From an uncultured Acidimicrobiaceae bacterium (GTDB lineage Bacteria; Actinomycetota; Acidimicrobiia; Spongiisociales; UBA5794), in contig CAYLVM010000005.1 in the NCBI GenBank assembly GCA_964387145.1, positions 1-56,221 on the forward strand: a stretch of 56,221 nt of DNA. The letters are read 5' to 3'. Below are positions 13,302 to 56,179 of this stretch, one piece after another. The notes beneath the pieces were generated by a model, which did not search any database, was not told where the DNA came from, and worked only from the letters and a program-made list of their open reading frames with translations. The translations under genes and the position numbers were made by a program. Within the stretch, counting starts at the first letter, position 1; every line of letters begins with the position of its first letter.

Positions 13302-13389
13302 TGTCGCGTCACACGTTCTCAGCCATGTGGCCGGTGTTTCGTTGACAAGTCGACTTGGTGAGTCCACGTGTTCCTATCATCTCTGATCG

Positions 13390-14637
13390 ATGCACTACGA
13401 ACTCACGACACTCCCCAACGGTCTACGGATCATCACAGAGCACATGCCTTCGATCCGTTCGGCAACGATCGGTTGCTGGGTCGACACCGGTAGCCGGGAC
13501 GAAGATTCCCGTGAGGCTGGTGCCTCACACTTCCTCGAACACCTCCTCTTCAAGGGGTCGGAGGACTGGTCAGCGCGCCGGATCTCTGAGACCTTCGATG
13601 GGCTCGGGGCGCGTCACAACGCCTTCACATCCAAGGAGTACACGTGTTTCTGGACCAGGACCCGTGACGAGGATCTCCCGGTCGGTGTCGAGATCCTCGG
13701 TGAGATGCTCCAGTTGCCTTCGTTTCGCCAGGAGGAGATCGACTCGGAGCGCAACGTCGTTCTCGAAGAGATCAACATGAACGAGGACGATCCGACCGAT
13801 GTCGCCCATGAGCAGTTCATCGAGGCGATGTGGGGATCACATCCGCTCGCCGCACCGATCCTGGGTACGAAGGAGTCGATCACCGGGATGTCGCGCACGA
13901 CCATCCGGTCGTACTGGGAGCGAAGGTACTCGCCGCACACGACCGTCATCGCCGTTGCAGGGAACCTGCCGGAGAACCTCATCGAACTTCTCACCGACCG
14001 CTTCGGCTCATGGGACGGAACCGGCGGTGAGAGGGTGTCTGTCGAACCGACGGTCACCGCCACCGTCGGTTTGCGCACCAAGGACACGGAACAGGCGCAT
14101 CTGATCTTCGGTTCACCGTCGCTCGTACGCGACGATGATCGTCGATTCGCTCTGACCATTCTCGACCACGTGCTTGGTGGCGGCATGTCGTCACGGCTCT
14201 TTCACGAGATTCGTGAGACGCGTGGCCTTGCCTACGCCGTGCACAGTTTTCGTATGCCGTTCCTGGATGCGGGAGCCTCCGCGGTGTACGTCGGTACGAC
14301 ACCATCCCAGGTCGACGAAGTCCTCAAGATCGTGAGGGCACAACTCGACGAGCTCATCGCCAACGGCATCTCGGACGAGGAGTTGGAGCGAGCCAAGGGC
14401 CACATCAAGGGGTCGCTCGCGCTTGGGCTCGAAGATTCGAGTTCGCGGATGAACCGTCTCGGGCGGAACGAGCTGACGGGGATCGACCACCTCTCCGTCG
14501 ATGAGACCGTTGAGAGGATCGCGCAGGTGACCAACGACGACATCAAGCAGGTTGCGAAGATCGCCTACTCCGGGCCGTACGTCCTCGGTGCGGTTGGTCC
14601 GTTCGATCGCGACGATCTCGAGGAGTACGTCAGATGA
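13390..14637 (+). CDS. M16 (pitrilysin/insulinase) family zinc peptidase
   Basis: GASHFLEHLLFKG (inverted HxxEH), NAFTSKEYT, LGGGMSSRLFHEIRETRGLAY. Confidence 0.95.
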   Translation: MHYELTTLPNGLRIITEHMPSIRSATIGCWVDTGSRDEDSREAGASHFLEHLLFKGSEDWSARRISETFDGLGARHNAFTSKEYTCFWTRTRDEDLPVGVEILGEMLQLPSFRQEEIDSERNVVLEEINMNEDDPTDVAHEQFIEAMWGSHPLAAPILGTKESITGMSRTTIRSYWERRYSPHTTVIAVAGNLPENLIELLTDRFGSWDGTGGERVSVEPTVTATVGLRTKDTEQAHLIFGSPSLVRDDDRRFALTILDHVLGGGMSSRLFHEIRETRGLAYAVHSFRMPFLDAGASAVYVGTTPSQVDEVLKIVRAQLDELIANGISDEELERAKGHIKGSLALGLEDSSSRMNRLGRNELTGIDHLSVDETVERIAQVTNDDIKQVAKIAYSGPYVLGAVGPFDRDDLEEYVR

Positions 14638-15392
14638 AGGTCGGTGTGTCTGGTGCCTCCGGACGTATGGGAAGCCTTGCAGCGGCGACCATCGACGAGC
14701 AAGAGGATCTGCATCTCATAGCGTTGTACGACGCGCACACGGTCGGCAACATCGCAGGGCTCTCCATCAATCAGGATCCCGGCACCCTGGACGGCTGTGA
14801 CGTGATCGTCGAGTTCTCTCGTCCAGACGTCGTGATGGACAACCTCGCTCGATGGCGTTCCCTCGGAGCGAACGTGGTCGTCGGCACTTCTGGTTTCGAC
14901 GCGCAGCGTCTTGGGGCGCTCGATGAACTGTGGGGGAACGGACCGGGGAACTGCCTCGTCGTACCGAACTTCTCGATCGGTGCCGTTCTCATGATGAAGC
15001 TCGCCGAGATCGCAGCACGGCACTTCCCTGTCGTCGAGATCATCGAGATGCACCACGATGAAAAGGCCGATGCACCTTCGGGCACGGCGATCGCGACGGC
15101 CCGTGTCGTCGCGTCTGTTGCGGGCGAGCCTGTGCGGGCGGTCGACTCTGAGGAGTTGTACGACGGTGCGCTCGGTGCCGATGTGGAGTCCGTGCGCATC
15201 CACTCCGTAAGGATGCCGGGCATCGTTGCGCACCAGGATGTCATCTTCGGCGGTCCCGGCGAAACGCTCACCATCAGCCACGACACGACGGACCGCTCCT
15301 CGTTCATGCCGGGACTGCTGTTGGCGGTGCGAAGTGTCGGTGCTCAGAAAGAAACGCTCGCCGTTGGCCTCGATCGGTTGCTGCGGATCTGA
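14634..15392 (+). CDS. dapB: 4-hydroxy-tetrahydrodipicolinate reductase
   Basis: GASGRMG, VVGTSGF, PNFSIG, EMHHDEKADAPSGTA, HDTTDRSSFMPG. Confidence 0.96.
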   Translation: MKVGVSGASGRMGSLAAATIDEQEDLHLIALYDAHTVGNIAGLSINQDPGTLDGCDVIVEFSRPDVVMDNLARWRSLGANVVVGTSGFDAQRLGALDELWGNGPGNCLVVPNFSIGAVLMMKLAEIAARHFPVVEIIEMHHDEKADAPSGTAIATARVVASVAGEPVRAVDSEELYDGALGADVESVRIHSVRMPGIVAHQDVIFGGPGETLTISHDTTDRSSFMPGLLLAVRSVGAQKETLAVGLDRLLRI

Positions 15393-15480
15393 GAACTCTC
15401 GCGAACATGCAGCACCCCGGGTTCTGTGGGCCCACTGCGGCATATATCGGACGTACAACCCTGGGTACGCGCAGAGGGGG

Positions 15481-16326
15481 TTAGTAGAGGGTGTTGGCGA
15501 GTTGGCGGCGGTACGTCACGGTGAGTGGGTGGTCGGGTCCGAGCACCCCGAAGATGTCGACCATGGCGAGACGGGCCTCCTCCCTCAGGTCTCCGTTGTG
15601 GCGGACGACGTCGAGCATCCGATCGAGAGCCGGTTCGTACTCCGCGTGAGCTGCGAGTGCGCGTGCCAGTTCCAATTGGGCGTTGTCATCGGCGGGATCG
15701 GCCCGTACTGCGGCTTCGAGTTCGGAGAGATCGGTCCCAGCCGACCCACGAAGGCGGGCGGCGGACTGGAGTCGCCCGACATCGGCGTCAGGGATGAGCT
15801 TGCCGAGGACGATCATGGCTTCTTCGGTCTCGCCCTTGTCGATCAACAGTGCCGCAAGCGACGTCCCGGCTTCCTGGTGATCCGGCTTCTGATCGAGGAC
15901 CTGGCGAAGCATGTGCTCGGCTGCCGTGGTGTCGCCGGCGACGAGCGCCGATCGTGCCTCGTCGACGAGCAGATCGAGCTCGCTCGGCATCACCCCATCG
16001 ATGAACGCCAGGATCGATGCTTCAGGGAGCGCTCCCGAGAACCGGTCCACCTCCTTGCCGTGACGGATGGCAACGACGGTTGGGATCGACTGGACCCCGA
16101 ACTGCGCCGAGAGCTCCTGATTGGCGTCGACATCCACCTTTGCAAGTTCGAATCGGCCACCGGCTTCGTCCGTGATGCGTTCCAGGAGGGGGGACAGCGT
16201 CTTGCACGGGCCGCACCACTCGGCCCAGAAGTCCACGAGGACCGGGACTTCACGCGACCGGAGCAGCACGTCCTGTTGGAACTCCGCCGTTGAAATGTCC
16301 TTGATGTGGGGGCTTGTATCTTCCAT
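15481..16326 (-). CDS. Thioredoxin-TPR co-chaperone (YbbN/CnoX-like)
   Basis: VLVDFWAEWCGPCK thioredoxin domain plus a TPR-like C-terminus ending YRRQLANTLY. TATCCT 7 nt upstream of ATG 16326. Confidence 0.9.
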   Translation of the reverse strand: MEDTSPHIKDISTAEFQQDVLLRSREVPVLVDFWAEWCGPCKTLSPLLERITDEAGGRFELAKVDVDANQELSAQFGVQSIPTVVAIRHGKEVDRFSGALPEASILAFIDGVMPSELDLLVDEARSALVAGDTTAAEHMLRQVLDQKPDHQEAGTSLAALLIDKGETEEAMIVLGKLIPDADVGRLQSAARLRGSAGTDLSELEAAVRADPADDNAQLELARALAAHAEYEPALDRMLDVVRHNGDLREEARLAMVDIFGVLGPDHPLTVTYRRQLANTLY

Positions 16327-16368
16327 GGGGACAAGGATAGATAACGGTCCCGTGGTAACTTGCGGGTC

Positions 16369-17274
16369 ATGGAACATCGCACCGAGGCACCGTTCGGACG
16401 GGTCCTCACCGCCGTCATCACCCCGTTCGGCGATAACGGCTCAATCGACTACGCGGCGTTCTTCCGTCTGGTGAAGCACCTGAAGAAGAACCGCTCCGAC
16501 GGCATCGTCGTTGCCGGTACAACGGGAGAATCGCCCGTCCTGTCTCGGCCGGAGAAGATCGCTCTCTTTCGCGCAGCCGTAGATGCAGCGAAAGGTGGGA
16601 TGGTTGTCGTTGCAGGTGTAGGGACCTACGACACGAGGGAGTCGGTCGCGCTCGCCAAGGCAGCGGCGGACGCCGGAGTCGATGGTCTCATGGCAGTGAC
16701 CCCCTACTACTCGAAACCGCCGCAGGCGGGGATCGTCGCCCACATGGTCGCGATCGCCGATGCGACCGATCTCCCGCTGATGATCTACAACATTCCGGGG
16801 AGGACATGCACGCGGATCGAGATCGAGACACTCGTCGAACTCGCCATCCACCCGAGGATCGTCGCAGTCAAGGATGCTGTGGATGATCTCGAGTGGTCCA
16901 AGAGAGCCATCGATGCGTTCCCGGAGAGCTTCGCCGTCTACTCGGGGAGCGACGCCATGACGAAGGATCTGGTGGAGGCTGGGGCCGTCGGGGTCGTTTC
17001 TGTTGCCTCCCATCTCGCAGGTGTGACGATCGCAGAGATGATCGATGCTGCTCTCGGTGGAGATCTCGACAGGGCTGCAGTGATCGACACCGTGCTCGGC
17101 CCCCTCGTCGAAGCACTGTTCATGGAGCCGAGTCCGATGCCGCTCAAGGCCGGTCTCACCTCCTACTGGGACTCCGTCGGCGAACCACGCCTCCCGCTGG
17201 TTCCGGCGAGGCAAGAGACGACGGAGGCGATAGGCTCGGCACTCGAAGCGATCAACGAATTCAGGTCACAATGA
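16369..17274 (+). CDS. dapA: 4-hydroxy-tetrahydrodipicolinate synthase
   Basis: GTTGES, VTPYYSKP, YNIPGRT, Schiff-base Lys in VAVKDA, EPSPMPLK. TAACTT 7 nt before ATG 16369. Confidence 0.95.
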   Translation: MEHRTEAPFGRVLTAVITPFGDNGSIDYAAFFRLVKHLKKNRSDGIVVAGTTGESPVLSRPEKIALFRAAVDAAKGGMVVVAGVGTYDTRESVALAKAAADAGVDGLMAVTPYYSKPPQAGIVAHMVAIADATDLPLMIYNIPGRTCTRIEIETLVELAIHPRIVAVKDAVDDLEWSKRAIDAFPESFAVYSGSDAMTKDLVEAGAVGVVSVASHLAGVTIAEMIDAALGGDLDRAAVIDTVLGPLVEALFMEPSPMPLKAGLTSYWDSVGEPRLPLVPARQETTEAIGSALEAINEFRSQ

Positions 17275-24879: not shown

Positions 24880-25722
24880 TCACTCGGTGGCCAGGAACGT
24901 CTCCGTCGTGTCCCAGAGATCCTCGATGCGGTCGACGCGAACGGTTGCATCGTCATGGAGATCTGAGGCGACCTGGGCGACAAGCAGCTCAGCCATGGTG
25001 ACGGCAGGAACCGAGCTGTCGAAGGGGCCGATCGCCGGCACGGTCAGCTCGCACCATGTCGCGGCGAGGGCAGCGAGGGGAGACAGCGGACCGTCGGTGA
25101 TAGCGATCATCTCAACGCCGGCGTCGGCGAGGATGCGTGCGATGCGAACGGCCTCTGCGCGGTAGCGGGAGAAGTCGAACGCGACACCGGCATCACCGGC
25201 CCGCGCGTCGGCAAGGGCGACGGGAACGGTTGCCCCTTCGAGGAAGTGAACGTTCGGTCGGATCATGCTGAGTCCGCTGAACAGCGTGGAGGCGCCTGCC
25301 CGGGATGTCTCGCCGGTCACGATCCACACTGCATGGGCGCGCACGAGGGGAGCGGCGAGAGCCGCAAGTCGTCCACCCTCTGTGACCTCGAACACGGATG
25401 CGGTGGCACGGTCGATCGCGGCCTGCGCGGTCGCGTTCGTGGACCCATCGTGGCGGATCCTCTGACTCGGGCGGGTCACCTGTTCCGAGAGCGTCTCGCG
25501 AACCGAAGCCTGGAGTTCGCTGTACCCACCGAATCCGAGCTTGTGCGCGAACCGCACGATCGACGGCCGGCTCGTCCCGACACGGGTTGCGAGATCCGAT
25601 ACGGTGCCGAACGCGAGAAGCGTAGGTTCGGCGAGTACCGCCTCTGCGATGCGGCGCTCCGTCGGTGTCAGGCGATCTGCAGCGGCGGCGATGAGTTCCG
25701 GTGTCGTGGCTCGGATGTGCAT
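24880..25722 (-). CDS. MurR/RpiR-family transcriptional regulator (HTH + SIS)
   Basis: LTPTERRIA, TSRPSIVRFAHKLGFGGYSELQ, SIS-domain AITDGPLSPLA. Divergent from the aminomutase operon. Confidence 0.93.
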   Translation of the reverse strand: MHIRATTPELIAAAADRLTPTERRIAEAVLAEPTLLAFGTVSDLATRVGTSRPSIVRFAHKLGFGGYSELQASVRETLSEQVTRPSQRIRHDGSTNATAQAAIDRATASVFEVTEGGRLAALAAPLVRAHAVWIVTGETSRAGASTLFSGLSMIRPNVHFLEGATVPVALADARAGDAGVAFDFSRYRAEAVRIARILADAGVEMIAITDGPLSPLAALAATWCELTVPAIGPFDSSVPAVTMAELLVAQVASDLHDDATVRVDRIEDLWDTTETFLATE

Positions 25723-25802
25723 TGTGTTACAGTATCATAAAGCAGATATTCACTGCGTTACATGACCGACTCCGTGAGAGCACCAGCGAATCGAGGCTGC
25801 AA
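25723..25802. promoter_or_regulatory. Divergent promoter region rpiR / aminomutase operon
   Basis: TACTGT 6 nt before the rpiR ATG on the minus strand, TATCAT (25733-25738) on the plus strand, two GTTACA copies (25726, 25757). Confidence 0.55.
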
Positions 25803-27257
25803 GTGGGCACATCGAGCAAGTACGTTCCATCGGCGAGGGAGCAGGCGTTCCTCGACCGGGTGGAGAACCCCAAGTACGATCGGGAGATCATCAACGGTCT
25901 CACCCCGTTCTTCGAGGACCGAGCCCCGGACGATATGAAGGACTTCTACTCGAGCGACGAGATCGCTGCATTGACAGAACTCCGCGGCACCGAGCGTGAC
26001 GTCGAGGCCCGCATGCCGGTCAAGATCACCCGGCATTACTTCGAGATGGCGAAGCATTCACAGGCCCTTCAGCGTCTGGTCAAGGCGAGCCCCGACGAGA
26101 CGCTCAACCTGGCAGGATCTGAGGATCCAGGCTTTCAGATGGACTACAGCCCGGTCGAAGGCTTGCTGCACAAGTACGAGATGGGACTCATGTACGTGAT
26201 CTCTACATGCTCGGCCCACTGTCGGTTCTGTTACCGCGAGGAGCTGATCTCTCGCAAGGACATCGAGCGCCAGGACGGGACCGTTGCCAAGAAGGGGTTG
26301 GCCCAGATCGGCGACGTGACGGCCTACATTCGGTCACACAACGCAGTCGTCGAGAGCAACGGTGGCGTCCACCCCGAGTCGGGGCGTGAGAAGCTGCGCG
26401 AGATCCTGCTCTCTGGTGGCGATCCGATGGTGCTGCCGAACGCGAAGATCGCAGCATGGTTCGCCGCACTCGCCGAGGCAGGTGTCGAATCCATCCGGCT
26501 TGGAACGAAGGAGATGGCGTTCTACCCCGATCGTTTCGACGGTGCGTTCCTCTCCATGCTCGATGCGTTCCACGAGACGTACCCCGACGTGGGGCTCAGG
26601 TTGATGGTCCACTTCAACCACCCCGACGAGTTCCTCGTCAAGGATGCTTCCGGTGCGTACCTCGAGAACCCGAACGGGTCGCTGCGATGGAACGATCGGG
26701 CCAAGCGGGCCATGGATGCGATCGTCGAACGTGGCTGGATCAACGTCGAGAACCAGGCACCGATCATCAAAGGGATCAACGACGACGCTGATGCCCTGCG
26801 GATCATGCAGCGGGCGCTGTACCGGGTCGGAGTCGGCAACCACTACTTCTTCTGCGGTAGGGACATCGTTGCCCACAAGGCGTTCAACGTACCCATCGAG
26901 ACCGCATGGCACATCCTCAACGAATCCCAGAAGGGCCTCTCGGGCGTTGAGACCCACGCTCGTCTGTCGATCACCCACTACAAGGGCAAGACCGAGGTGG
27001 CAGCGGTCACGAACGAGCCGATCCCCGGCGTTCCAGCATCCCAGAACGGGGTCCTGGTCTTCAAGATCCTTCGCAACGCCAAGGACGCGAAGGACCGAGG
27101 CAAGGTGTGCATCGTCGGTCGCAACCCTGACGCGATCTGGTTCGACGACTACGAGGATCGCGTCATCTACGACGAGGCGGGACTCTTCGACTACCGGCGC
27201 GTCGAAGCCCAAGGTGCTGAGGTTCCGTTGAGCGTTGGCTCGCCCGTGTCGTCGTGA
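25803..27257 (+). CDS. KamA/lysine-2,3-aminomutase-like radical SAM enzyme (substrate unknown)
   Basis: PVKITRHY, SPVEGLLHKY, CSAHCRFCYR (CxxxCxxC), LSGGDP, HFNHPDE, NQAPIIKGINDD, LSG...KGK. GAGG RBS before GTG 25803. Confidence 0.9.
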   Translation: MGTSSKYVPSAREQAFLDRVENPKYDREIINGLTPFFEDRAPDDMKDFYSSDEIAALTELRGTERDVEARMPVKITRHYFEMAKHSQALQRLVKASPDETLNLAGSEDPGFQMDYSPVEGLLHKYEMGLMYVISTCSAHCRFCYREELISRKDIERQDGTVAKKGLAQIGDVTAYIRSHNAVVESNGGVHPESGREKLREILLSGGDPMVLPNAKIAAWFAALAEAGVESIRLGTKEMAFYPDRFDGAFLSMLDAFHETYPDVGLRLMVHFNHPDEFLVKDASGAYLENPNGSLRWNDRAKRAMDAIVERGWINVENQAPIIKGINDDADALRIMQRALYRVGVGNHYFFCGRDIVAHKAFNVPIETAWHILNESQKGLSGVETHARLSITHYKGKTEVAAVTNEPIPGVPASQNGVLVFKILRNAKDAKDRGKVCIVGRNPDAIWFDDYEDRVIYDEAGLFDYRRVEAQGAEVPLSVGSPVSS

Positions 27258-27964
27258 TCGACAAGACCGTCCCCGGGTGTGCCGCCGCTGTTGGCGACGT
27301 CTTCGACGGAGCAACCGTGATGATCGGTGGCTTTGGAGAAGCAGGGAGCCCGATCGAACTCATCCACGCACTCATCGATCAGGGTGCAGGCGAACTCACC
27401 GTCGTCAACAACAACACGGGAAGTGGAGAAGTCGGGCTCGCGGCGTTGATCAAGGCAGGGCGCGTATCCAAGATGATCTGCTCGTACCCGCGAACGGTGA
27501 ACTCAACCGTCTTCCCTGAGCTGTACCGCAGCGGCCGCACGGAACTCGAGCTCGTGCCCCAGGGAACCCTTGCCGAGCGGATACGTGCCGGTGGTGCCGG
27601 GATCCCTGCGTTCTACACACCAACATCCGTCGGGACACCGCTCGAGGAGGGCAAGGAACGCCGATCGTTCGCGGGGAGGGAGTACGTGCTCGAACACGGT
27701 CTCACCGCAGATTTCGCGTTGATCAAGTGCCAGGTTGCCGACCGATACGGCAACCTCGTCTACAACAAGACAGCGCGCAACTTCGGTCCCATCATGGCGA
27801 CCGCAGCCGATACCACGATCGTTCAAGCCACCGAGATCGTCGAACCAGGAGGTATCGATCCCGAGTCGGTGGTCACTCCGGGGATCTTCGTCGACGCGGT
27901 CGTCCTGGTCCCGCATCCCACCTACGAATCCGAACTCGTCGCAAAGGGAGTGTCGTACCCGTGA
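27254..27964 (+). CDS. pcaI: 3-oxoacid CoA-transferase subunit A, PcaI-type
   Basis: MIDK, DGATVMIGGFG, NNNTGSGEVGLAALI, ELVPQGTLAERIRAGGAGI, GNLVYNKTARNFGPIMA, VVTPGIFV. Close to the remembered PcaI sequence. GTGA overlap with the upstream gene. Confidence 0.85.
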   Translation: MIDKTVPGCAAAVGDVFDGATVMIGGFGEAGSPIELIHALIDQGAGELTVVNNNTGSGEVGLAALIKAGRVSKMICSYPRTVNSTVFPELYRSGRTELELVPQGTLAERIRAGGAGIPAFYTPTSVGTPLEEGKERRSFAGREYVLEHGLTADFALIKCQVADRYGNLVYNKTARNFGPIMATAADTTIVQATEIVEPGGIDPESVVTPGIFVDAVVLVPHPTYESELVAKGVSYP

Positions 27965-28650
27965 GCAGCCGAACCACGATCGTTGGATGGACGCGGGATG
28001 AGATGGCTGAACGCGCAGCACGCGACATCCCAGACGGTTCCTATGTGAACCTTGGTATCGGCATCCCCGAGCTCGTCGCTACACACGTACCTGCCGGCAG
28101 GGAGGTCATCTATCACACCGAGAACGGGCTGCTCGGGATGGGGCCGTCCCCCGAGGACGGGATGGGTGATCCAGAGTTGATCAACGCGGGTAAGCGACAG
28201 GTCACAGCGTTGCCGGGAGCAGCGTTCTTCCACCACGCAGATAGTTTTGCGATGATCCGCGGCGGACACATCGACCTCTGCGTTCTCGGCGCCCTGCAGG
28301 TCTCTCAGTACGGCGATCTCGCCAACTGGTCCACCGGCGCCCCGGACGCCATTCCTGCCGTCGGCGGGGCCATGGACCTCGTAGCGGGGGTCAAGACGAT
28401 CCACGTCATCACGCAGCACACGACGAGGGACGGCCAGCCGAAACTCGTGCGTTCGTGTACGTTCCCACTGACAGGACCCGCTGTGGTCGACCGGATCTAT
28501 ACCGATCTCGCCGTGATCGACGTCGCACCGGATGGATTCGTGCTCGTCGAACTCGCACCCGGTGTCGACCTCGACTACGTGCGAGAGCGGACAGGTGCAC
28601 CGCTCATTGCGATCGATGACAGCGAGGAAGGGATTGAGAGCGATGGGTGA
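27961..28650 (+). CDS. pcaJ: 3-oxoacid CoA-transferase subunit B, PcaJ-type
   Basis: YVNLGIGIP, catalytic Glu in HTENGLLGMGP, AFFHHADSFAMIRGGH, GDLANW, AVGGAMDL, FPLTG. Confidence 0.85.
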   Translation: MSSRTTIVGWTRDEMAERAARDIPDGSYVNLGIGIPELVATHVPAGREVIYHTENGLLGMGPSPEDGMGDPELINAGKRQVTALPGAAFFHHADSFAMIRGGHIDLCVLGALQVSQYGDLANWSTGAPDAIPAVGGAMDLVAGVKTIHVITQHTTRDGQPKLVRSCTFPLTGPAVVDRIYTDLAVIDVAPDGFVLVELAPGVDLDYVRERTGAPLIAIDDSEEGIESDG

Positions 28651-29962
28651 AGGAACGACGCAGTCCAAGAGTGCTGCGCTCTACGAACGTGCGCTTCGAG
28701 TCCTGCCGGGTGGGGTGAGTCGCAACACGGTGCTGCGAAAGCCGCACCCCCTCTACGTCGATCATGGGTCCGGATTCCGGGTGACCGACATCGAAGGGGT
28801 CGAACGTATCGACTTCGCGAACAACATGGCGTCGTTGATCCATGGACACGCCCATCCGGCGATCATCGATGCCGTCACCGAACAGATGTCCAAGGGAACT
28901 GCGTTCACTCTCGCTACCGAGGTGGAAATCCGCTACGCCGAACATCTCACCCAACGCAACGATGGATTCGAGAAGATCCGCTTCGTCAACTCGGGAACGG
29001 AGGCCGTGATGGCGTCCGTCAAGGCGTCTCGTGCGTTCACCGGCCGGTCCAAGATCGCGAAAGTCGAAGGGGCCTACCACGGTGTCTACGACTACGCCGA
29101 AATCAGCCAGACATCGAGCCCTGCAAACTGGGGAAACGCATCGGAGCCGGTCGGCGTACCGGTCGCCTACGGCACACCAAGCGCCGTGCTCGCCGACGTC
29201 GTCGTCATCCCGTTCAACGACCCGCAGCGTGCCGTAGCGATCCTCGACGAGCATCGGGGTGAGCTGGCATGTGTCCTGATCGACCTCATGCCACACCGTG
29301 TCGGCCTGTCTCCGGCGGAACCTGCGTTCGTGACGGCCCTGCGGGAGTGGACCGAGGCGGATGGATCGCTGCTCGTGTTCGACGAGGTCATCACGTTCCG
29401 TTCCGAGTACGGCGGAGCCCAGACCTGGTATGCCGAGCGACCGGATCTCACGGCCATGGGCAAGGTCATCGGCGGGGGCTTCCCGGCCGGGGCCATCGCC
29501 GGTCGTAGCGACGTGATGAACGTCATGGATCCCCTTGCCGAGAACGTCCTGTTCCCACACTCCGGTACGTTCTCAGCGAACCCGATCACGATGACGGCCG
29601 GTCTGGTAGCCATGACACTGTTCGATGCTGATGCGGTCGAGCGGGTGAATGCGCTGGCGACTCGCGCCATCGAAGGTATCACGGAGGCGATCACAGCGAG
29701 GGGAGCCACGGCGTGTGTCACCGGTGGCGGGTCCATGTTCCGTGTGCACCTCAAGGCACAGCCGCCGAGAAACTACCGTGAGGCGTACGCCGACGCTCAA
29801 GAGACGGCCCGGCGTCTCGCCCTCGTCGAGTATCTCCTCGAACGCGGGTTCATCATGATCAACACCTGCTCGGCAACGATCTCGACACCGATGGGCAACG
29901 ACGAGATCGATGCCCTCGTCGAAGCGGTGGCGGACGGACTGGAACGTTACGCAACGACGTAG
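28643..29962 (+). CDS. Class III PLP aminotransferase, HemL/beta-transaminase subgroup
   Basis: LPGGVSRNT, IRFVNSGTEA, YHG, FDEVITFR, PDLTAMGKVIGGG (PLP Lys), HSGTFSANP. Confidence 0.9.
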   Translation: MGEGTTQSKSAALYERALRVLPGGVSRNTVLRKPHPLYVDHGSGFRVTDIEGVERIDFANNMASLIHGHAHPAIIDAVTEQMSKGTAFTLATEVEIRYAEHLTQRNDGFEKIRFVNSGTEAVMASVKASRAFTGRSKIAKVEGAYHGVYDYAEISQTSSPANWGNASEPVGVPVAYGTPSAVLADVVVIPFNDPQRAVAILDEHRGELACVLIDLMPHRVGLSPAEPAFVTALREWTEADGSLLVFDEVITFRSEYGGAQTWYAERPDLTAMGKVIGGGFPAGAIAGRSDVMNVMDPLAENVLFPHSGTFSANPITMTAGLVAMTLFDADAVERVNALATRAIEGITEAITARGATACVTGGGSMFRVHLKAQPPRNYREAYADAQETARRLALVEYLLERGFIMINTCSATISTPMGNDEIDALVEAVADGLERYATT

Positions 29963-30002: not shown

Positions 30003-30413
30003 ATGACCGACCCGACAGAGCTCATCAGGAAACTCGCAGATGTTCAGGACCGCATCCTCGCACTTCCCGACGATGCGTTCGCGCAGCGCTGGGAGCTCCG
30101 CAAGGAGCAGGATGATCTTCGCAGCCAGGCCCAAGAGTTCGCGTACGCCATGGACGAGGACAAGTTCGACGACGAGCTTCTCTCCGAACTTCGGGCACTG
30201 CGTGATCGGATGAAGGCCATCGAACGCCAGCGTATCGACCTCGTCGGTCAGGCCGGGGGAGGCTCGATGTCGGGCGAGATGGGCAACCTCGGCGGTGTCA
30301 AGATCAACCGCGGTATCGACGACGCCATGGGGCTACCTGGCATCAAGGCGCGTATCGGTGTCATCAAGGGCGTTCTCATGAACAGGGGTGTCGACATCCC
30401 ACCCGCCGACTGA
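30003..30413 (+). CDS. Hypothetical helical protein (136 aa)
   Basis: Coding-like codon pattern, coiled-coil-like N-half, TAGCCT 6 nt before the ATG. Confidence 0.7.
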   Translation: MTDPTELIRKLADVQDRILALPDDAFAQRWELRKEQDDLRSQAQEFAYAMDEDKFDDELLSELRALRDRMKAIERQRIDLVGQAGGGSMSGEMGNLGGVKINRGIDDAMGLPGIKARIGVIKGVLMNRGVDIPPAD

Positions 30414-31408: not shown

Positions 31409-32431
31409 GTGATGTCAGGAAACGCAAGCTTCGACCTGCGAGACGCAGCGATCGTCTCGATCGCCCACGTGGACGCTCCTCAGATCGTGACCTCGAGCGA
31501 CATCGACGAACAGCTCGCCGAGACTTATGAGCGTGTCGGTGCCCAACCCGGCCTTCTCGAAAGTCTTGCGGGTATCCGTGAGCGACGCTGGTGGCCTGAA
31601 GGCCATCTCTTCACGGATGCTGCTGCAGCAGCCGGCGCCAAAGCCATAGAGGCAGCCGGCATCCGCTCCGACGACATTGGCCTTCTCATCGACACATCGG
31701 TGTGTCGAGACCGCCTCGAACCGTCATCGGCAGTCACCGTGCACAACGCACTCGACCTGCCAAGCTCATGCATGAGCTTCGACCTCTCCAATGCCTGCCT
31801 CGGTTTCGTCAACGCGCTCCAAGTTACGGGCAACATGATCGACGGAGGCCAGATCGACTACGCGTTGATCGTCGATGGCGAGGGGAGTCGTGGGCTCCAG
31901 GAGAACACGATCGCCCGCCTGGCCGGACCCGACACGACGATGGGGGACCTCTTCGCAGAGTTCGCATCCTTGACGCTTGGATCCGGCGGCGCTGCAGCCG
32001 TAGTCGGACGCCACTCAGACAACCCGGGGAGTCATCGCATCGTCGGTGGCATCGCTCGTGCCGATACGAGCCACCACGACATCTGCGTAGGCGACCTCGA
32101 GGGCATGCGGACCGATACCAAAGCCCTTCTCGACGCTGGTTTGCACGTGTCCAAGCTGGCCTGGGGTGATGCAGACGAGCGGGGATGGCTCGATGCAGAC
32201 CGCTACATCGTGCATCAGGTGTCCCAGGTACACACCGCAATGCTGAACGAACTTCTCGGTCTTGACCCAGCGAAAGTGCCGCTCACGTTCCCAACACTCG
32301 GAAATGTGGGCCCGGCATCGATCCCGATCACGCTCTCGATGGAGTCCGACTCCCTGAGTCCAGGAGACAAGGTACTCCTGATGGGGATCGGATCCGGGAT
32401 CAACGCGTCTGCCATCGAACTGATCTGGTGA
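31409..32431 (+). CDS. oleA: OleA-type thiolase-fold condensing enzyme
   Basis: GIRERRWW, RLEPS (catalytic Glu), FDLSNACLGF (Cys), ASLTLGSGG, HQVS (His), GNVGPASIP (Asn), MGIGSGIN. Confidence 0.9.
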   Translation: MMSGNASFDLRDAAIVSIAHVDAPQIVTSSDIDEQLAETYERVGAQPGLLESLAGIRERRWWPEGHLFTDAAAAAGAKAIEAAGIRSDDIGLLIDTSVCRDRLEPSSAVTVHNALDLPSSCMSFDLSNACLGFVNALQVTGNMIDGGQIDYALIVDGEGSRGLQENTIARLAGPDTTMGDLFAEFASLTLGSGGAAAVVGRHSDNPGSHRIVGGIARADTSHHDICVGDLEGMRTDTKALLDAGLHVSKLAWGDADERGWLDADRYIVHQVSQVHTAMLNELLGLDPAKVPLTFPTLGNVGPASIPITLSMESDSLSPGDKVLLMGIGSGINASAIELIW

Positions 32432-34995
32432 TCCCGGCCGCTCACCGATCGGCGAGCCTGCCACCGTCTGGCCTCGACGGACTCGACCCGACGTGGTCGC
32501 GGTTGATCACGACCCCCGCCCTCGACGGCGTCGGAAGAACCTGGCACGTGCTCGACAACCGGGTCACAGATCCATCGCTGACACTGCTCTGTGTCCATGG
32601 CAACCCCACATGGTCGTACCTGTGGCGTGACCTTCTCGCATCGGCGCCGCCGGGCGTGCGGGTCGTCGCCGTCGATCACCTCGACATGGGGTTCTCCGAG
32701 CGGACAGGAACAACGCGCCGTCTTGCACAGAGGATCGACGATCTCTGCGCGCTCACCGGTGCCCTCGAGATCGATGGCCCCGTCGTGACCGTAGCCCACG
32801 ACTGGGGAGGGCCGATCTCCCTCGGGTGGGCAGAGCGTCACGTGGACCAACTCGCCGGCGTGATCCTGATGAACACGGCAGTGCACCAACCACAGGACGT
32901 CGCTCCACCCGGCCTGATCCGGCTCGTGAGGACGCCCGGCCTCCTCGAGAAGGTCTGTGTCACCTCGCCGATGTTCGTACGTGGGGCAATGGCCCTGTCA
33001 CGTCCCCGTCCGGACAAGGACGTCAGACGCGCCTACGAGGCCCCGTACGGCAACCCGGAGGTGAGGCATGGGATCGCCGGGTTCGTAGAGGACATACCCC
33101 TCGACCCGCATCATCCGACGCGTGCAACGCTCGACGCCGTTGCGAACGGTCTCGAAGGTCTCAAGGATGTCCCGACGCTGCTGCTGTGGGGACCCTCCGA
33201 TCCGGTGTTCTCGGATCGCTACCTTCGCGATCTCGCGAAACGTCTGCCCCAGGCATCGATCCACCGGTTCATTGGAGCAAGCCACATGCTCCCCGAGGAT
33301 GTAGATGTCGCGCCCGTCGTGTACGCGTGGATCGACCGCGACACCGCTATGCCACCCATCGGTGACGGACGAACCCGAGAATCGCTTTGGGCAGCGATCG
33401 AGCGACGATCCAATGACCGAGATCCAGCGGTGGTCGACATGGGCAAGGAGGGTGCCCAACGGTACGTCACGTTCGCCGAGTTGGCCGAAGGAGTCTCGGA
33501 CCTCGCCTCCGGTCTTGCGGCCATAGGCGTCGCCCCCGGTGACCGGATCGCGTTGCTCGTGCCTCCGGGCATCGACCTGGCGCTCTGTCTCTACGGTGCG
33601 TGGAGAGCGGGTGCTGTCGTGGTGCTCGTCGACGCAGGTCTTGGCGTCCGCGGGATCGGGAGGGCACTCAAGAGCGCCAACCCCCAGTATCTCATCGGCA
33701 TCCCAAAGGCCCTGGCTGCTGCCCGCACGATGCGATGGCCCGGTGTCGGTATCTCGACGTCGACCTTGGCAGTATCTCAGGCCCGCGCTCTCGGTGTCAG
33801 GCACTCACTCGACGAGATCCGCAAGCGCGGACGAAGCCACCAGACGCCTGCCGAGGTCGGCGGTGATGCGTACGCGGCGGTTGCGTTCACATCGGGGGCC
33901 ACCGGACCGGCGAAGGGAGTCGTCTACCGACACCGCCAGCTCCAGGCGCAACGCGATGCACTTGTCGACCTTTACGACATCGTTGAGTCCGACCGGCTCG
34001 TTGCCGCGTTTGGCCCATTCGCTCTCTTTGGGCCGGGGATGGGGATCCCGTCTGTCGTCCCGCACATGGACGTGACATCGCCTGGAACGCTCACCGCCAG
34101 TTCGCTCGCAGCGGCGGTTGAAGCGATCGACGCGACCATGGTGTTCGGATCGCCGGCAGCGCTGCGCAACGTCACCGCGACGGCAAGCGACCTGTCCCAC
34201 GATGAGCGCGAGCACCTCGCACGGGTCCGACTGCTGTTGTCGGCCGGTGCACCGGTTCCCGCCGACGTACTCCATGGTGCGGTCGAGGTGATGCCGAACG
34301 CCGAGCCACATACGCCGTACGGCATGACCGAGGTCCTTCCCGTCGCCGACATCTCTCTTTCTCAGATCGATGAGGCAGGCGACGGTTCCGGTGTCTGCGT
34401 CGGACTTCCGGTCCACGGCATCGACGTCGTGATCGATCCGTTCGACCGACAGGGGGTGCCGAAGGGAGCCACGACGACCGATCCCGACGTGGTCGGGGAG
34501 GTCTGCATCAAGGCGCCGCACATGCGCGATGGTTACGACAACCTGTGGTTCGCGCAGCACGCCGCGTCTCAGCCTCCGGGCTGGCACCGAAGTGGCGACG
34601 TCGGGCACTTCGATGCCGAAGGGCGCCTATGGATCGAGGGCAGGATCGTTCACGTCATCTCCACCATGTCGGGGCCTGTTACCCCTATCGGCCTCGAGCA
34701 TGCGATCAACCGACTCGAGGGAGTTGCGCTCTCGGCCATCGTTGGAGTCGGTCCGAAGGGAACGCAGCAGGTCGTGGCAGTCATCGTTCCCGATCCCGGC
34801 ATCCGGCGATCCTCGCTCGCAGGCGAGGGGCTTGCAGACCAGGTGCGCTCGCAGGTCGGAGCCGTTGACGTCGCAGCGGTGCTCGTCGTCCGGTCGCTGC
34901 CGGTCGACAAGCGGCACAACTCCAAGATCGACCGGACGCGCGTTGCTGCCTGGGCCGAGCGCGTGCTCGCCGGTGGGCGGATGGGGAATCCATGA
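32428..34995 (+). CDS. oleBC: OleB-OleC fusion (alpha/beta hydrolase + beta-lactone synthetase)
   Basis: HGNPTWSYLWR and HDWGG (haloalkane-dehalogenase-like OleB), then FTSGATGPAKGV, TPYGMTEVLP, HRSGDVGH and LPVDKRHNSKIDR (OleC). Confidence 0.9.
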   Translation: MIPAAHRSASLPPSGLDGLDPTWSRLITTPALDGVGRTWHVLDNRVTDPSLTLLCVHGNPTWSYLWRDLLASAPPGVRVVAVDHLDMGFSERTGTTRRLAQRIDDLCALTGALEIDGPVVTVAHDWGGPISLGWAERHVDQLAGVILMNTAVHQPQDVAPPGLIRLVRTPGLLEKVCVTSPMFVRGAMALSRPRPDKDVRRAYEAPYGNPEVRHGIAGFVEDIPLDPHHPTRATLDAVANGLEGLKDVPTLLLWGPSDPVFSDRYLRDLAKRLPQASIHRFIGASHMLPEDVDVAPVVYAWIDRDTAMPPIGDGRTRESLWAAIERRSNDRDPAVVDMGKEGAQRYVTFAELAEGVSDLASGLAAIGVAPGDRIALLVPPGIDLALCLYGAWRAGAVVVLVDAGLGVRGIGRALKSANPQYLIGIPKALAAARTMRWPGVGISTSTLAVSQARALGVRHSLDEIRKRGRSHQTPAEVGGDAYAAVAFTSGATGPAKGVVYRHRQLQAQRDALVDLYDIVESDRLVAAFGPFALFGPGMGIPSVVPHMDVTSPGTLTASSLAAAVEAIDATMVFGSPAALRNVTATASDLSHDEREHLARVRLLLSAGAPVPADVLHGAVEVMPNAEPHTPYGMTEVLPVADISLSQIDEAGDGSGVCVGLPVHGIDVVIDPFDRQGVPKGATTTDPDVVGEVCIKAPHMRDGYDNLWFAQHAASQPPGWHRSGDVGHFDAEGRLWIEGRIVHVISTMSGPVTPIGLEHAINRLEGVALSAIVGVGPKGTQQVVAVIVPDPGIRRSSLAGEGLADQVRSQVGAVDVAAVLVVRSLPVDKRHNSKIDRTRVAAWAERVLAGGRMGNP

Positions 34996-35957
34996 GGGTC
35001 CTCGTGACGGGGGCAACCAGCCTCCTCGGCCGCACGGTCACCGAGCATTTGCTCGCCAGAGGTGACGATGTGACGGTGTTCCAACGCCACTCGAGCGATA
35101 TCGACACGCGTGAGATCCTCGGTGATGTCTCCGACAGTGACGTCGTTGCACGGGCGGCGGAAGGTGTCGATGCGGTCGTGCACCTTGCTGCACGGGTCGG
35201 TGTGGTCGGCGTATGGAGACAGTTCGAGAGAACGAACATCATGGGTACGACGAACGTGATCACTGCTGCGCGTAGCGCCGGTGCATCGCGATTCGTTCAC
35301 GTCTCGTCTCCAGCAGTTGCGCACGCTGGAGTGTCACTCATTGGAGCGGGCGCCGGTGCAGCCAACCCGAACAGTGCACGCGGACCGTACGCCCGCAGTA
35401 AAGCGTTCGCCGAGCATGCCGCACTCGCCGCGAACTCCTCCGAGATGTCAGTCGTGGCGGTACGCCCGCACCTCGTATGGGGACCGGGCGACACACAACT
35501 CGTGGGTCGGATCATCGAGCGAGCCAGGCAGGGGAGACTCGCGATCGTCGGTACGGGTGCATCACTCATCGACAGCACCTACGTCGACAACGCCGCTGAT
35601 GCTCTCGTCGCCGCGCTCGACCGGGCAGACACCGTTGGAGGCAGGGCCTTCGTCGTGTCGAATGGCCAACCGAGGCCGGTACGTGAACTCATCAACAGGA
35701 TCGTTCTTGCCGCAGGGTTGGAGCCGCCGAGCATCGCGGTTCCGTACCGTGTCGCACGCGGCGGCGGCCTGGTATTGGAGAAGGTATGGGACCGCACCGA
35801 GCGGACCGATGACCCCCCGATGACGAGTTTCCTCGCAGAACAGCTGGGAACCGCCCACTGGTTCGATCAGCGCGAGACCCGAGAGGCGCTCGGTTGGATT
35901 CCGTCCGTCTCCCTCGACGAGGGGTTCCGGCGGCTGGCAGCCTCCTTCGGGTCGTAG
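34992..35957 (+). CDS. oleD: OleD-type NAD(P)-dependent reductase (extended SDR)
   Basis: VLVTGATSLLG, VHLAA, HVSSP, YARSK, RPHLVWGPGD. Follows oleBC with an ATGA overlap. Confidence 0.88.
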   Translation: MRVLVTGATSLLGRTVTEHLLARGDDVTVFQRHSSDIDTREILGDVSDSDVVARAAEGVDAVVHLAARVGVVGVWRQFERTNIMGTTNVITAARSAGASRFVHVSSPAVAHAGVSLIGAGAGAANPNSARGPYARSKAFAEHAALAANSSEMSVVAVRPHLVWGPGDTQLVGRIIERARQGRLAIVGTGASLIDSTYVDNAADALVAALDRADTVGGRAFVVSNGQPRPVRELINRIVLAAGLEPPSIAVPYRVARGGGLVLEKVWDRTERTDDPPMTSFLAEQLGTAHWFDQRETREALGWIPSVSLDEGFRRLAASFGS

Positions 35958-36731: not shown

Positions 36732-38048
36732 ATGACCGCCCCCTCCGTATGGCTGACGACGCTTGGCTGCTCCAAGAACCAGGTCGACTCCGACAAGATC
36801 TCCTCAGTCCTGGGTGACTCGGGATACGTCGACGCCGATGATCCCGAGACCGCCGACGTCGTGATGGTGAACACGTGTGGGTTCATCGATGCAGCCCGTA
36901 GGGAGTCGATCGAGACGATCCTCGAGCTTGCCGACGCAAAGCGTGACGATGCGAAGCTCGTGGTGATGGGGTGCATGGCGCAACGCTACGAACAGGAACT
37001 CATCGAAGCACTCCCGGAAGCCGATGCGGTGATCGGGCTGTCACGGTACTCCGAACTCGCGGACGAGATCGACACGATGACCGGATGGCACCCGATCCAG
37101 ATCGGTGGCGTGAAACGATCGCACATGGACATCCTCGAGGGCGTTCGGCGACCAACACCCGCAACGCCGTACGCCTACGTGAAGGTTGCGGAAGGATGCA
37201 ACAAGACGTGTGCGTTCTGTGCCATCCCGCTGATCCGCGGCAAGCAACGCTCGAGGGTAGGGGAGGGCATCGTCGCAGAGATCGAGGGGCTCGTTGCCGG
37301 GGGAGTCCAGGAGATCGTCCTCGTCGCACAGGACCTCGCTGCATACGGGAGGGACAACGATGCGGGCTCTATAGAAGATCTCGTGGAGCGAGCGGCGTCT
37401 GTAGAGGGGCTTGCCCGCTTGCGTCTCTACTACCTGTACCCGAAGGAGATCCGGGAAGGTCTCATCGATCTGATGGCGGGTCATAGGACGATCGCCAACT
37501 ACTTCGACCTGTCACTCCAACACTCCTCAGCAACGCTGCTGCGTGCCATGCGCCGGCCCGGGAGCGGCGACGGGCACCGCGACCTCATCGATCGTATCCG
37601 GGTTGCTGCACCCGACGCTGCAACGCGCTCGAGTTTCATCGTCGGCTTCCCAGGTGAAACCGATGACGACGTCGAGGATCTCGCAGGGTTCCTTCGTGAC
37701 GTTCGACTCGACTGGGCAGGGTTCTTCCCCTTTTCACGGGAGGACGGCACGACGGCGGCCACGATGGAGAACCAGGTTCCTGGCAACGTGATCGGCGAGC
37801 GGCTCCGGTACATTCAGAACATCCAGGACGAGATCACCATGGAGAAGAATGCAGCGACGGTCGGATCGACCGTGCGGGTACTCGTCGACCAGGTAGAGGA
37901 TGGCCAGGCGGTCGGCCGATCACATCGCGAGGCTCCCGAGATCGACGGCATGATCCTTCTCGATGACGGGCATCCGGGGGAGTGGGTCAACGCGACGATC
38001 ACGGGTGCCTACGCAACGGACACGACCGCGACCGTGGTCGGCCTGTGA
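36732..38048 (+). CDS. rimO: Ribosomal protein S12 methylthiotransferase
   Basis: LGCSKNQVDS, NTCGFI, GCMAQRY, EGCNKTCAFCAIP, C-terminal TRAM with EAPEIDG. Confidence 0.96.
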   Translation: MTAPSVWLTTLGCSKNQVDSDKISSVLGDSGYVDADDPETADVVMVNTCGFIDAARRESIETILELADAKRDDAKLVVMGCMAQRYEQELIEALPEADAVIGLSRYSELADEIDTMTGWHPIQIGGVKRSHMDILEGVRRPTPATPYAYVKVAEGCNKTCAFCAIPLIRGKQRSRVGEGIVAEIEGLVAGGVQEIVLVAQDLAAYGRDNDAGSIEDLVERAASVEGLARLRLYYLYPKEIREGLIDLMAGHRTIANYFDLSLQHSSATLLRAMRRPGSGDGHRDLIDRIRVAAPDAATRSSFIVGFPGETDDDVEDLAGFLRDVRLDWAGFFPFSREDGTTAATMENQVPGNVIGERLRYIQNIQDEITMEKNAATVGSTVRVLVDQVEDGQAVGRSHREAPEIDGMILLDDGHPGEWVNATITGAYATDTTATVVGL

Positions 38049-39843: not shown

Positions 39844-39999
39844 CCGTCAGGTGATGGGATGGTGCCAGGATCCGGGGGTCGCCCGACGGCAGGGATCGGG
39901 GCCCATATCCTCGTCGAGTCCGGTCCCGCCTAGCATGTGCGCGCTGCGCTCCGGGGAGTGGGCGCTGCTGGGAACGGGTTACTCGCCTGGAGGGACGGG

Positions 40000-55921: not shown

Positions 55922-56055
55922 TGCTGTCTCGCTGAACGTCGGGTATCGGAAGGTACCGCCTTGGAGCGGCTGTGTCACCGAGATGTGGCATCGTTGGGCC
56001 GATGACGGCAGCGAGCGGCGTGCCGCCCCGGGGGTAGAAACGATCAGCCTCGTGG

Positions 56056-56061
56056 TACCAT
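56056..56061 (+). promoter_or_regulatory. Extended -10 element of the tRNA operon
   Basis: TGG-TACCAT, 9 nt upstream of tRNA-Gly. Confidence 0.55.
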
Positions 56062-56070
56062 CCAGTGCAC

Positions 56071-56143: not shown

Positions 56144-56151
56144 CCGATGAG

Positions 56152-56170
56152 GGCGGTCCGTGCGACCGCC
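56152..56170 (+). other. Inter-tRNA spacer hairpin
   Basis: GGCGGTC-cgtgc-GACCGCC, extendable with ATGA/TCAT. Confidence 0.5.
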
Positions 56171-56179
56171 TTTCATTAT

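Follow-up and report, generated by a model that had tools for sequence, protein, structure and literature searches.

This work concerns a five-gene locus in a 56,221-nucleotide stretch of DNA from an uncultured Acidimicrobiaceae bacterium (contig CAYLVM010000005.1; the whole stretch is called the window below). In this locus, a gene for an RpiR-family regulator diverges from four genes encoding a KamA-like radical S-adenosylmethionine (SAM) protein (the mutase), the two subunits of a CoA-transferase and a class III aminotransferase. Together they form a self-contained, horizontally mobile catabolic module. Judged from sequence evidence, the module very probably follows the logic of aminomutase, beta-transaminase, CoA activation and thiolysis, and we would give even chances to 2-aminoadipate as its substrate.

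Conservation and replacement of the gene set

More than 2000 relatives of the mutase were found in the protein collection, the best 120 of which are 77-99% identical to it, and orthologues occur in the genomes of at least 561 species (one genome was scanned per species), the closest relatives being Acidimicrobiia metagenome-assembled genomes (MAGs). The locus counts given here and below refer to the best 80 of these related loci; all 80 lie in MAGs, and most of the exceptions lacking core genes are short contigs. They come from at least eight phyla and include Acidimicrobiia and other Actinomycetota, Gammaproteobacteria (Woeseiaceae, Lysobacterales, Chromatiales), Gemmatimonadota, Acidobacteriota, Chloroflexota, Planctomycetota, Polyangiaceae, Kiloniellales and Eiseniibacteriota. 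Mutase identity among them is 75-87%, even across phyla, and reaches 90% in the orthologue set. The window sequence itself was matched in metagenomic DNA runs only, from hydrothermal vent and marine sediment samples.

A CoA-transferase gene adjoins the mutase gene in 74 of the 80 loci, and chance adjacency was rejected because this pairing recurs across phyla. Genes for a class III aminotransferase and for RpiR each adjoin the mutase gene in 68 loci. The gene order is that of the window in 40 loci, while 33, mostly from Gammaproteobacteria and Acidobacteriota, show a second order in which aminotransferase, thiolase, CoA-transferase subunit B, subunit A and RpiR genes diverge from the mutase gene. 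Neighbourhoods outside the core differ between loci, and the module therefore moves as a unit. The sequence-only reading of this DNA had made its proposal depend on co-conservation of the gene set, which is borne out: the genes stand together in at least eight phyla, in two gene orders, and the aminotransferase as well as the CoA-transferase has in some lineages been replaced by a non-orthologous enzyme. These replacements are the strongest argument for functional coupling. Three differing enzyme solutions are seen, and what is kept is therefore the triad of aminomutase, beta-transaminase and CoA-transferase.

One such solution is found in a cultured bacterium. A tblastn search of plasmids returned a 67%-identical mutase, WP_199202193.1, annotated as 'hypothetical protein', on plasmid NZ_AP023244.1 of Mesorhizobium sp. 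113-3-3. Its cluster (12001-16852 of locus L083) continues with the ferredoxin gene fdxA, a type-1 aminotransferase gene (62% identical to that of the window) and a CoA-transferase pair that matches the glutaconate CoA-transferase GctA/GctB (1POI_A, 1.8e-19; 1POI_B, 1.8e-32); a GlxA-type regulator stands in the place of RpiR. The position of fdxA beside the mutase gene is as expected for a radical SAM enzyme dependent on a reductant. The GctA-like open reading frame (ORF), at about 15242-15970, is absent from the PLSDB gene table, and a BREX-1 defence system lies directly 5' of the cluster.

Organization of the locus

The arrangement described by the sequence-only reading, with RpiR divergent from four overlapping co-oriented genes, was recovered for all five genes (Table 1). 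The four plus-strand genes overlap by 4, 4 and 8 nt. The longest ORF of the mutase begins at 25701, inside rpiR; the GTG at 25803 was taken as the real start because the resulting protein equals its homologues in length. A Pfam scan of some 35 further ORFs in the window found no pcaBCDGH, kamDE, kdd, kce, efp/epmA or hem genes, in agreement with what had been noted before. Lysylation of elongation factor P was thus rejected for want of efp or epmA, and classical lysine fermentation for want of kamDE, kdd and kce.

A predicted radical SAM mutase with altered substrate-binding residues

The description of the mutase as KamA-like holds at the superfamily level and does not hold at the family level, since against TIGR00238, the model of the KamA family, it reaches 89 bits (cut-off 199.2). 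It also stays far below the models of lysine 2,3-aminomutase (LAM; TIGR03820, 69 bits, cut-off 525), glutamate 2,3-aminomutase (Eam; TIGR04368, 75.6 bits, cut-off 650) and the arginine aminomutase (86 bits, cut-off 600); with EpmB included, the scores run from 69 to 86 bits and the cut-offs from 369 to 650. Against LAM 2A5H, the only solved relative, 53-62 bits were obtained. On these scores the mutase is a deep, uncharacterised and distinct clade of the KamA superfamily.

Its fold is nevertheless that of the superfamily, as a structural model built with AlphaFold2 indicates. The confidence of the model (predicted local distance difference test, pLDDT) was 50 with an alignment whose members were all at least 77% identical and 92.8 with a 39-sequence alignment of 50%-cluster representatives. 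The best PDB match of this second model in Foldseek was 2A5H (E 5.5e-18, TM score on the target 0.67, 430 columns, about 18% identity); the next radical SAM structure followed at E 2e-5, thirteen orders of magnitude weaker. The CxxxCxxC motif that binds the Fe-S cluster and SAM (C136-SAH-C140-RF-C143) is invariant in three family alignments, and the GGDP and HFNHPDE motifs are present. In the HMMER alignment to 2A5H, whose residue numbering was verified, R145 aligns with LAM R134 (alpha-carboxylate), and K396, invariant across 39 relatives down to 25% identity, aligns with K337, the lysine that binds pyridoxal phosphate (PLP). A 2,3-amino migration would thus be the chemistry expected from the family.

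The residues that hold the side chain are different. In LAM the epsilon-ammonium group of lysine is held by Asp293, with which an arginine invariant in the family, Arg353, aligns here, and at the position of Asp330 there is a two-residue deletion or Thr/His (SI--THYKGK against V-I-D-V-P-G-x-x-G-K in a LAM-type relative used as a stand-in for LAM). Examined for lysine specificity, the mutase is thus found to lack the two aspartates with which LAM binds lysine. The cationic Arg353 in the place of an anionic residue argues for an acidic side chain and against lysine. Glutamate 2,3-aminomutase reportedly has Lys and Asn for the two aspartates. The structural Zn site of LAM (C268, C375, C377, C380) is also altered: C268 is replaced by Asp and the C-terminal CxCxxC is missing. 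The free substrates known for the aminomutase family are limited to lysine, arginine and glutamate. A large branch of shorter KamA proteins (350-400 aa), many of them archaeal (Methanospirillum, Diapherotrites) and named only 'KamA family radical SAM protein', has FQCRP for the YQCD of LAM and SHxxGKxEV for its DxPGGGGK; the substrate of this branch is probably also not lysine.

Two types of aminotransferase

The PGGVSRNT and HSGTF motifs that had been quoted for the aminotransferase of the window are present. The protein scores 320 bits against the HemL equivalog model, whose cut-off of 527 bits is not reached, so that a HemL function in tetrapyrrole synthesis was rejected. Its best PDB matches are 6K8H (1.7e-122) and ForI of formycin biosynthesis (6SSD, 2.3e-106), followed by glutamate-1-semialdehyde aminomutases (GSAMs, about 1e-66) and the beta-transaminases 2YKU and 4AO9 (about 1e-55). 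The Schiff-base lysine lies in AMGKVIGGG and aligns with that of ForI. We refer to this enzyme as type 1. In 27 loci, about a third, it is replaced by a type-2 enzyme, the form that goes with the second gene order, which is some 30% identical to it and matches the characterised beta-transaminases 6IZ9, 2YKU (MesAT of Mesorhizobium sp. LUK) and 4AO9 (the Variovorax beta-phenylalanine aminotransferase) with E values of about 1e-121.

Both types keep the arginine of the PGGxxR motif (PGGVSR in the window, PGGNTR in MesAT and type 2) that aligns with MesAT R54, which reportedly binds the carboxylate of the beta-amino acid. The switching arginine R412 of MesAT is present in type-2 enzymes, and no arginine stands at this position in the window enzyme, 6K8H or ForI. 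The window aminotransferase is thus predicted to belong to a GSAM-like group related to the beta-transaminases.

A PcaIJ-type CoA-transferase and a PcaF-type thiolase

Subunit A of the CoA-transferase is 63.7% identical to PcaI of Rhizobium etli, which is encoded in a pcaIJF operon preceded by a regulator gene of the IclR family, and subunit B is 57% identical to R. etli PcaJ. Solved ScoA/AtoD structures match subunit A with E values of 1e-64 to 1e-52, and no curated model separates 3-oxoadipate from acetoacetate specificity. Subunit B contains HTENG, within which TENG is the catalytic-glutamate motif of the family (it reads ...IYHTENGLLGMGP...). We propose that the enzyme is a succinyl-CoA:3-oxoadipate CoA-transferase.

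The thiolysis that had been predicted to follow has a candidate enzyme inside the operon. In the second architecture, a thiolase gene (400 aa) lies between the aminotransferase and CoA-transferase genes. The example at 4487-5689 of locus L080 passes both models of 3-oxoadipyl-CoA thiolase (TIGR02430, 664 against 597; NF006551, 685 against 605) and stays far below the acetoacetyl-CoA thiolase models (PhaA, 289 against 740). The in-operon thiolase is 64% identical to R. etli PcaF, and homologues of this PcaF type occur in 24 of the 80 loci, one Actinomycetota locus included. This favours 2-aminoadipate, which would lead to 3-oxoadipate, over glutamate, as the sequence-only reading had also judged best.

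The closest plasmid-borne homologue of the CoA-transferase (71% identical) is on plasmid pTM2 of Tistrella mobilis (locus L081, 1599-9391), near genes for a DUF1338 protein, an aldehyde dehydrogenase and a PLP aminotransferase. DUF1338 is the family of HglS, an enzyme of lysine catabolism that converts 2-oxoadipate. This neighbourhood may be a further link between the transferase clade and 2-aminoadipate metabolism.

The regulator and its probable operator

The regulator has an N-terminal HTH_6 and a C-terminal SIS domain, both above the Pfam cut-offs. When the intergenic regions between the divergent genes were aligned across five phyla, two direct repeats of approximately CATTnTGTTACAnTA, 31 bp apart, proved to be conserved. 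The corresponding pattern, GTTACA-N(23-27)-GTTACA, has a single match in the window (0.01 expected). Of the 68 loci with RpiR, 55 have it exactly once, in the same orientation and 16-107 bp (median 39) 5' of where the mutase gene starts; the 12 loci lacking RpiR have no match, and the roughly 1 Mb of flanking DNA contains no further one. GTTACA-N25-GTTACA is thus probably the RpiR operator, to judge by this distribution. At 25720-25731, the first box adjoins the start codon of rpiR (ATG, 25722-25720 on the minus strand), and the repeated unit itself includes 'CAT'. Because of this position, rpiR may be autoregulated or its transcript leaderless. Scans of the operon for inverted repeats, promoters and terminators gave nothing above chance.

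Proposed pathway

The route from an alpha-amino acid through a beta-amino acid and a 3-oxo acid to a 3-oxoacyl-CoA and thiolysis, first put forward by the sequence-only reading, is supported by the co-conservation, the enzyme replacements and the PcaF-type thiolase. In our model, RpiR would bind its operator in the divergent promoter region until an effector, probably the substrate or an intermediate, releases the operon. The KamA-superfamily enzyme, with a reduced [4Fe-4S] cluster, SAM and PLP, would then act on an acidic L-alpha-amino acid and shift its amino group from C2 to C3. An acidic substrate is expected from the change of Asp293 to Arg, and the favoured one is L-2-aminoadipate from lysine breakdown, which would give 3-aminoadipate. 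The GSAM-like beta-transaminase would convert 3-aminoadipate and a 2-oxo acid into 3-oxoadipate and an amino acid, after which the PcaIJ-type transferase would form 3-oxoadipyl-CoA at the expense of succinyl-CoA. A PcaF thiolase would finally release succinyl-CoA and acetyl-CoA; roughly one lineage in three encodes it within the operon, and in the genome of the window it is presumably encoded elsewhere, outside the 56 kb. In sum, the carbon of 2-aminoadipate would enter the lower beta-ketoadipate pathway with neither 2-oxoadipate dehydrogenase nor glutaryl-CoA dehydrogenase. The analysis shows the family-level identities of the genes, their co-conservation, the enzyme replacements, the operator and the pattern of active-site residues; the direction of the pathway, the order of the transaminase and transferase steps and the substrate are inferred.

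Several observations bear on 2-aminoadipate as the substrate. At two Woeseiaceae loci, a full-length homologue of L-lysine 6-dehydrogenase is encoded 21 bp 3' of the beta-transaminase gene on the same strand. Its best PDB match (E 1.2e-53) is 3ABI, which is an L-lysine 6-dehydrogenase (PMC10413350). This enzyme converts lysine into 2-aminoadipate semialdehyde, and we count the homologue in favour of 2-aminoadipate. At a further locus, L019, a distant gene of the saccharopine-dehydrogenase fold abuts that of RpiR, beside a polar amino-acid ATP-binding cassette (ABC) transporter. 2-Aminoadipate is also favoured because its breakdown otherwise needs 2-oxoadipate and glutaryl-CoA dehydrogenases, whereas glutamate has trivial routes. 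At two Acidimicrobiia loci, lysA, a bona fide diaminopimelate decarboxylase gene (TIGR01048, 434 bits against 298), directly follows the aminotransferase gene (L022, 12118-13452; L043, 12220-13491), which could be a coincidence or a lysine-related regulatory link.

Other observations weigh against this pathway or its substrate. No homologue of the in-operon thiolase was found in the 56-kb window, and the PcaF model may possibly also admit thiolases for other 3-oxo-dicarboxyl-CoAs. Three Chloroflexota loci (L058, L065 and L067) have RpiR, the mutase and a type-1 aminotransferase with no CoA-transferase nearby. The link to a lysine dehydrogenase is seen in only two or three of the 80 loci, and essentially no aldehyde dehydrogenase (for aminoadipate semialdehyde) or DUF1338 gene was found near the loci. 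The arginine at the D293 position also occurs in the large uncharacterised KamA branch described above, and may not define the substrate. RpiR-family SIS domains usually bind sugar phosphates and not amino acids. Finally, the Mesorhizobium CoA-transferase pair resembles glutaconate CoA-transferase, which prefers C5 dicarboxylates.

Alternative explanations

The same logic might serve a C5 substrate. Beta-glutamate (3-aminoglutarate), imported or made from glutamate by the mutase, would be converted into 3-oxoglutarate, 3-oxoglutaryl-CoA and then acetyl-CoA and malonyl-CoA. In a variant, 3-oxoglutarate might decarboxylate to acetoacetate, which a ScoAB-like transferase would activate, and the mutase might run from beta-glutamate to glutamate beside the transaminase. 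Most carriers live in marine sediment, and beta-aminoglutarate is prominent among the free amino acids of its pore water. A basic residue in the place of LAM D293 suits any acidic side chain, the Mesorhizobium cluster has its glutaconate-CoA-transferase-like enzyme, and in the Chloroflexota locus L058 a glutamate dehydrogenase gene lies upstream, together with one for a DRTGG/AAA_26 protein. Moreover, glutamate 2,3-aminomutase is an established activity of the KamA family (bioRxiv 10.1101/2025.11.21.689712). Against this, the mutase reaches only 76 bits where the glutamate 2,3-aminomutase model demands 650, the in-operon thiolase passes the cut-offs for 3-oxoadipyl-CoA and not that of PhaA, the transferase is 64% identical to a genuine PcaI, and a lysine 6-dehydrogenase homologue stands in the operon at two loci. 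Glutamate also has simpler routes, and for imported beta-glutamate either the mutase or the transaminase would be enough, yet both occur in 68 of the 80 loci. A C5 substrate is the main rival to 2-aminoadipate, and we regard it as unlikely.

The second and third steps of the proposed pathway might also be reversed, the CoA-transferase acting first on the free 3-amino acid and the aminotransferase then on the 3-aminoacyl-CoA, as Kat does, which would avoid a labile free beta-keto acid. There is a precedent in the HemL-like class III enzyme Kat, which takes only CoA thioesters and works alongside KamA and an AtoAD CoA-transferase (PMC3149608), and the window aminotransferase has no arginine at the MesAT R412 position. 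This order is nevertheless improbable, given that the transferase is of the 3-oxoacid type, with PcaIJ as its closest relative, that the type-2 replacement matches enzymes acting on free beta-amino acids (E about 1e-121), and that both aminotransferase types keep the arginine aligned with R54, which reportedly binds the free carboxylate.

A basic or neutral substrate appears slightly more improbable again. Lysine would pass through beta-lysine to 3-oxo-6-aminohexanoate, or leucine through beta-leucine to beta-ketoisocaproate, before CoA activation and thiolysis. Homologues of the mutase are annotated as lysine 2,3-aminomutase in their sources, Liv-type and polar amino-acid ABC transporters are encoded near some loci, and LysA is encoded downstream in two; in addition, KEGG links leucine 2,3-aminomutase with EC 2.8.3.5. 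However, with both lysine-binding aspartates of LAM missing, the invariant Arg353 would repel an epsilon-ammonium group; the scores are far under the cut-offs for lysine and arginine aminomutases, and the PcaF-type thiolase and the PcaIJ- and Gct-type transferases point to a dicarboxylate.

It is very improbable that the cluster serves the biosynthesis of a beta-amino acid, for use as an osmolyte or natural-product unit, from a 3-oxoacyl-CoA or an alpha-amino acid: KamA-family enzymes do make the osmolytes beta-lysine and beta-glutamate and macrolactam starter units, but no non-ribosomal peptide synthetase, polyketide synthase, ablB-like acetyltransferase or ligase is conserved with the cluster, its conserved partners are catabolic (the CoA-transferase and a degradative thiolase), and it has a dedicated substrate-type regulator with its own operator.

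Significance

Our overall interpretation, which we hold tentatively and with slightly less than even confidence, is that the module would add a 2-aminoadipate 2,3-aminomutase as a fourth substrate class of the family, together with a hitherto unrecognised branch of lysine catabolism through 3-aminoadipate and 3-oxoadipate. With its own regulator and operator, it would have spread through at least eight phyla of marine-sediment and hydrothermal bacteria, and it would give a first physiological role to 'orphan' beta-transaminases such as MesAT. If this is true, a small and mechanistically famous enzyme family gains a new substrate class and, probably, a new metabolite, 3-aminoadipate. Abundant uncultured sediment bacteria (Woeseiaceae, Acidimicrobiia) would convert lysine or 2-aminoadipate into succinyl-CoA and acetyl-CoA by a short route that needs no dehydrogenase, and the beta-transaminases known so far as biocatalysts only would acquire a physiological context. 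The enzymes would also be parts for the production of C6 dicarboxylates and beta-amino acids. The cultured carrier, with the Mesorhizobium plasmid and its ferredoxin gene beside that of the mutase, makes the pathway testable.

Genomic surroundings of the locus

The surroundings of the module in the window are of a housekeeping nature and comprise genes for RNase J, FtsK, an acyl-CoA ligase, a PabB-PabC fusion, a HisJ-type phosphatase, OleA, OleBC and OleD, two MiaB-like enzymes, CinA, RecA, RNase Y, MiaA and DapF. A 136-aa protein without a family match, coiled-coil-like in its N-terminal half and Gly-rich in its C-terminal half, is encoded at 30003-30413, 41 bp after the aminotransferase gene; the gene is kept only in the closest Acidimicrobiia relatives, is duplicated in L001, and is probably outside the module. 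Just 3' of the operon lies a complete ole cluster (31409-35957), in a synteny common to the close relatives L001, L007, L011 and L013, which suggests long-chain olefin biosynthesis in this Acidimicrobiia lineage.

Further along, two paralogous radical SAM methylthiotransferases of the MiaB/RimO type (UPF0004, Radical_SAM and TRAM domains) are encoded within 12 kb, at 36732-38048 and 48674-50062, the latter directly 5' of miaA. In an ORF of 1412 aa (39937-44175), PPDK_N and PEP-utilizer mobile domains are confined to the last 500 residues, and the first approximately 900 residues have no Pfam match. The gene for tRNA-Gly(GCC) (56071-56145, plus strand) overlaps the 5' end of the longest ORF of a BrkB-family gene (55076-56176, minus strand), whose true start must therefore be further in.

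Table 1. Coordinates of the module and of the adjacent ole genes in the window
Feature	Position	Strand	Basis
RpiR/MurR-family transcriptional regulator	24880-25722	-	Pfam: HTH_6 55.6 bits (5.5e-15), SIS 35.8 bits (8.4e-9)
GTTACA-N25-GTTACA bipartite element, probable RpiR operator	25726-25762	+	Divergent intergenic region, overlapping promoters
KamA-like radical SAM protein, 484 aa	25803-27257	+	TIGR00238 E 2.7e-25, below cut-off
CoA-transferase subunit A (PcaI/ScoA family)	27254-27964	+	TIGR02429 338 bits, cut-off 128.5
CoA-transferase subunit B (PcaJ/ScoB family)	27961-28650	+	TIGR02428 299 bits, cut-off 243.6
Class III (GSAM-like) aminotransferase	28643-29962	+	Aminotran_3 1.3e-51, 176 bits
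OleA-like thiolase	31409-32431		Pfam scan of the window
OleB-OleC fusion (alpha/beta-hydrolase and AMP-binding)	32428-34995		Pfam scan of the window
OleD-like NAD epimerase/dehydratase	34992-35957		Pfam scan of the window

Comparison with known systems

With LAM (2A5H; KamA/AblA) and the other KamA aminomutases (glutamate, arginine, EpmB), the mutase has in common the CxxxCxxC, GGDP and HxNHPxE motifs, the equivalents of R134 and K337, and the fold. It differs from LAM in extra insertions, in longer N- and C-terminal regions, in its genomic partners and in the changes at D293, D330 and the Zn site. The lower beta-ketoadipate pathway, as encoded by R. etli pcaIJF, resembles the module in both transferase subunits and in the thiolase of related loci; in contrast to that pathway, the module would be fed by an aminomutase and a transaminase and not by aromatic ring cleavage (there is no pcaBCDGH or cat), and its regulator is RpiR and not IclR/PcaR. 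The beta-transaminases MesAT (2YKU) and 4AO9 and the relatives 6K8H and ForI (6SSD) share the class III fold, the PGGxxR arginine and the PLP lysine with the window aminotransferase. MesAT-type enzymes have been studied as biocatalysts on aromatic and aliphatic beta-amino acids, with no physiological pathway assigned, and the window enzyme is distant from them (about 1e-55).

The same logic, from alpha-amino acid to beta-amino acid to 3-oxo acid, is reportedly followed by the beta-lysine route of Pseudomonas B4, which involves an N6-acetyl-beta-lysine transaminase, and is also said to underlie Poston's beta-keto leucine route; genes have reportedly been assigned to neither. Another parallel is the Kat variant of lysine fermentation, in which KamA, KamDE, Kdd, Kce, Kat/Kal and AtoAD convert lysine into acetate and butyrate (PMC3149608). 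Like the module, it opens with a KamA-family enzyme and uses a HemL-like beta-transaminase, a class I CoA-transferase and a thiolase (PMC3149608); unlike the module, it needs the B12-dependent KamDE together with Kdd and Kce, which are absent from the window, and its transaminase acts on the CoA ester.

The sequence-only reading had stated that no characterised pathway of this form is known. The combination was indeed not found in the literature searched, although the statement was slightly too strong, since the Kat variant also uses KamA and a HemL-like beta-transaminase (PMC3149608). Literature on 3-aminoadipate, on an aminomutase with 3-oxoadipate and on beta-glutamate with 3-oxoglutarate yielded no description of the pathway, and a match to 'beta-aminoadipic' was discarded as a typographical error in a reference list. 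To conclude, the parts of the module belong to known families, and the novelty lies in a KamA clade whose substrate is probably new and in the pathway arrangement around it.

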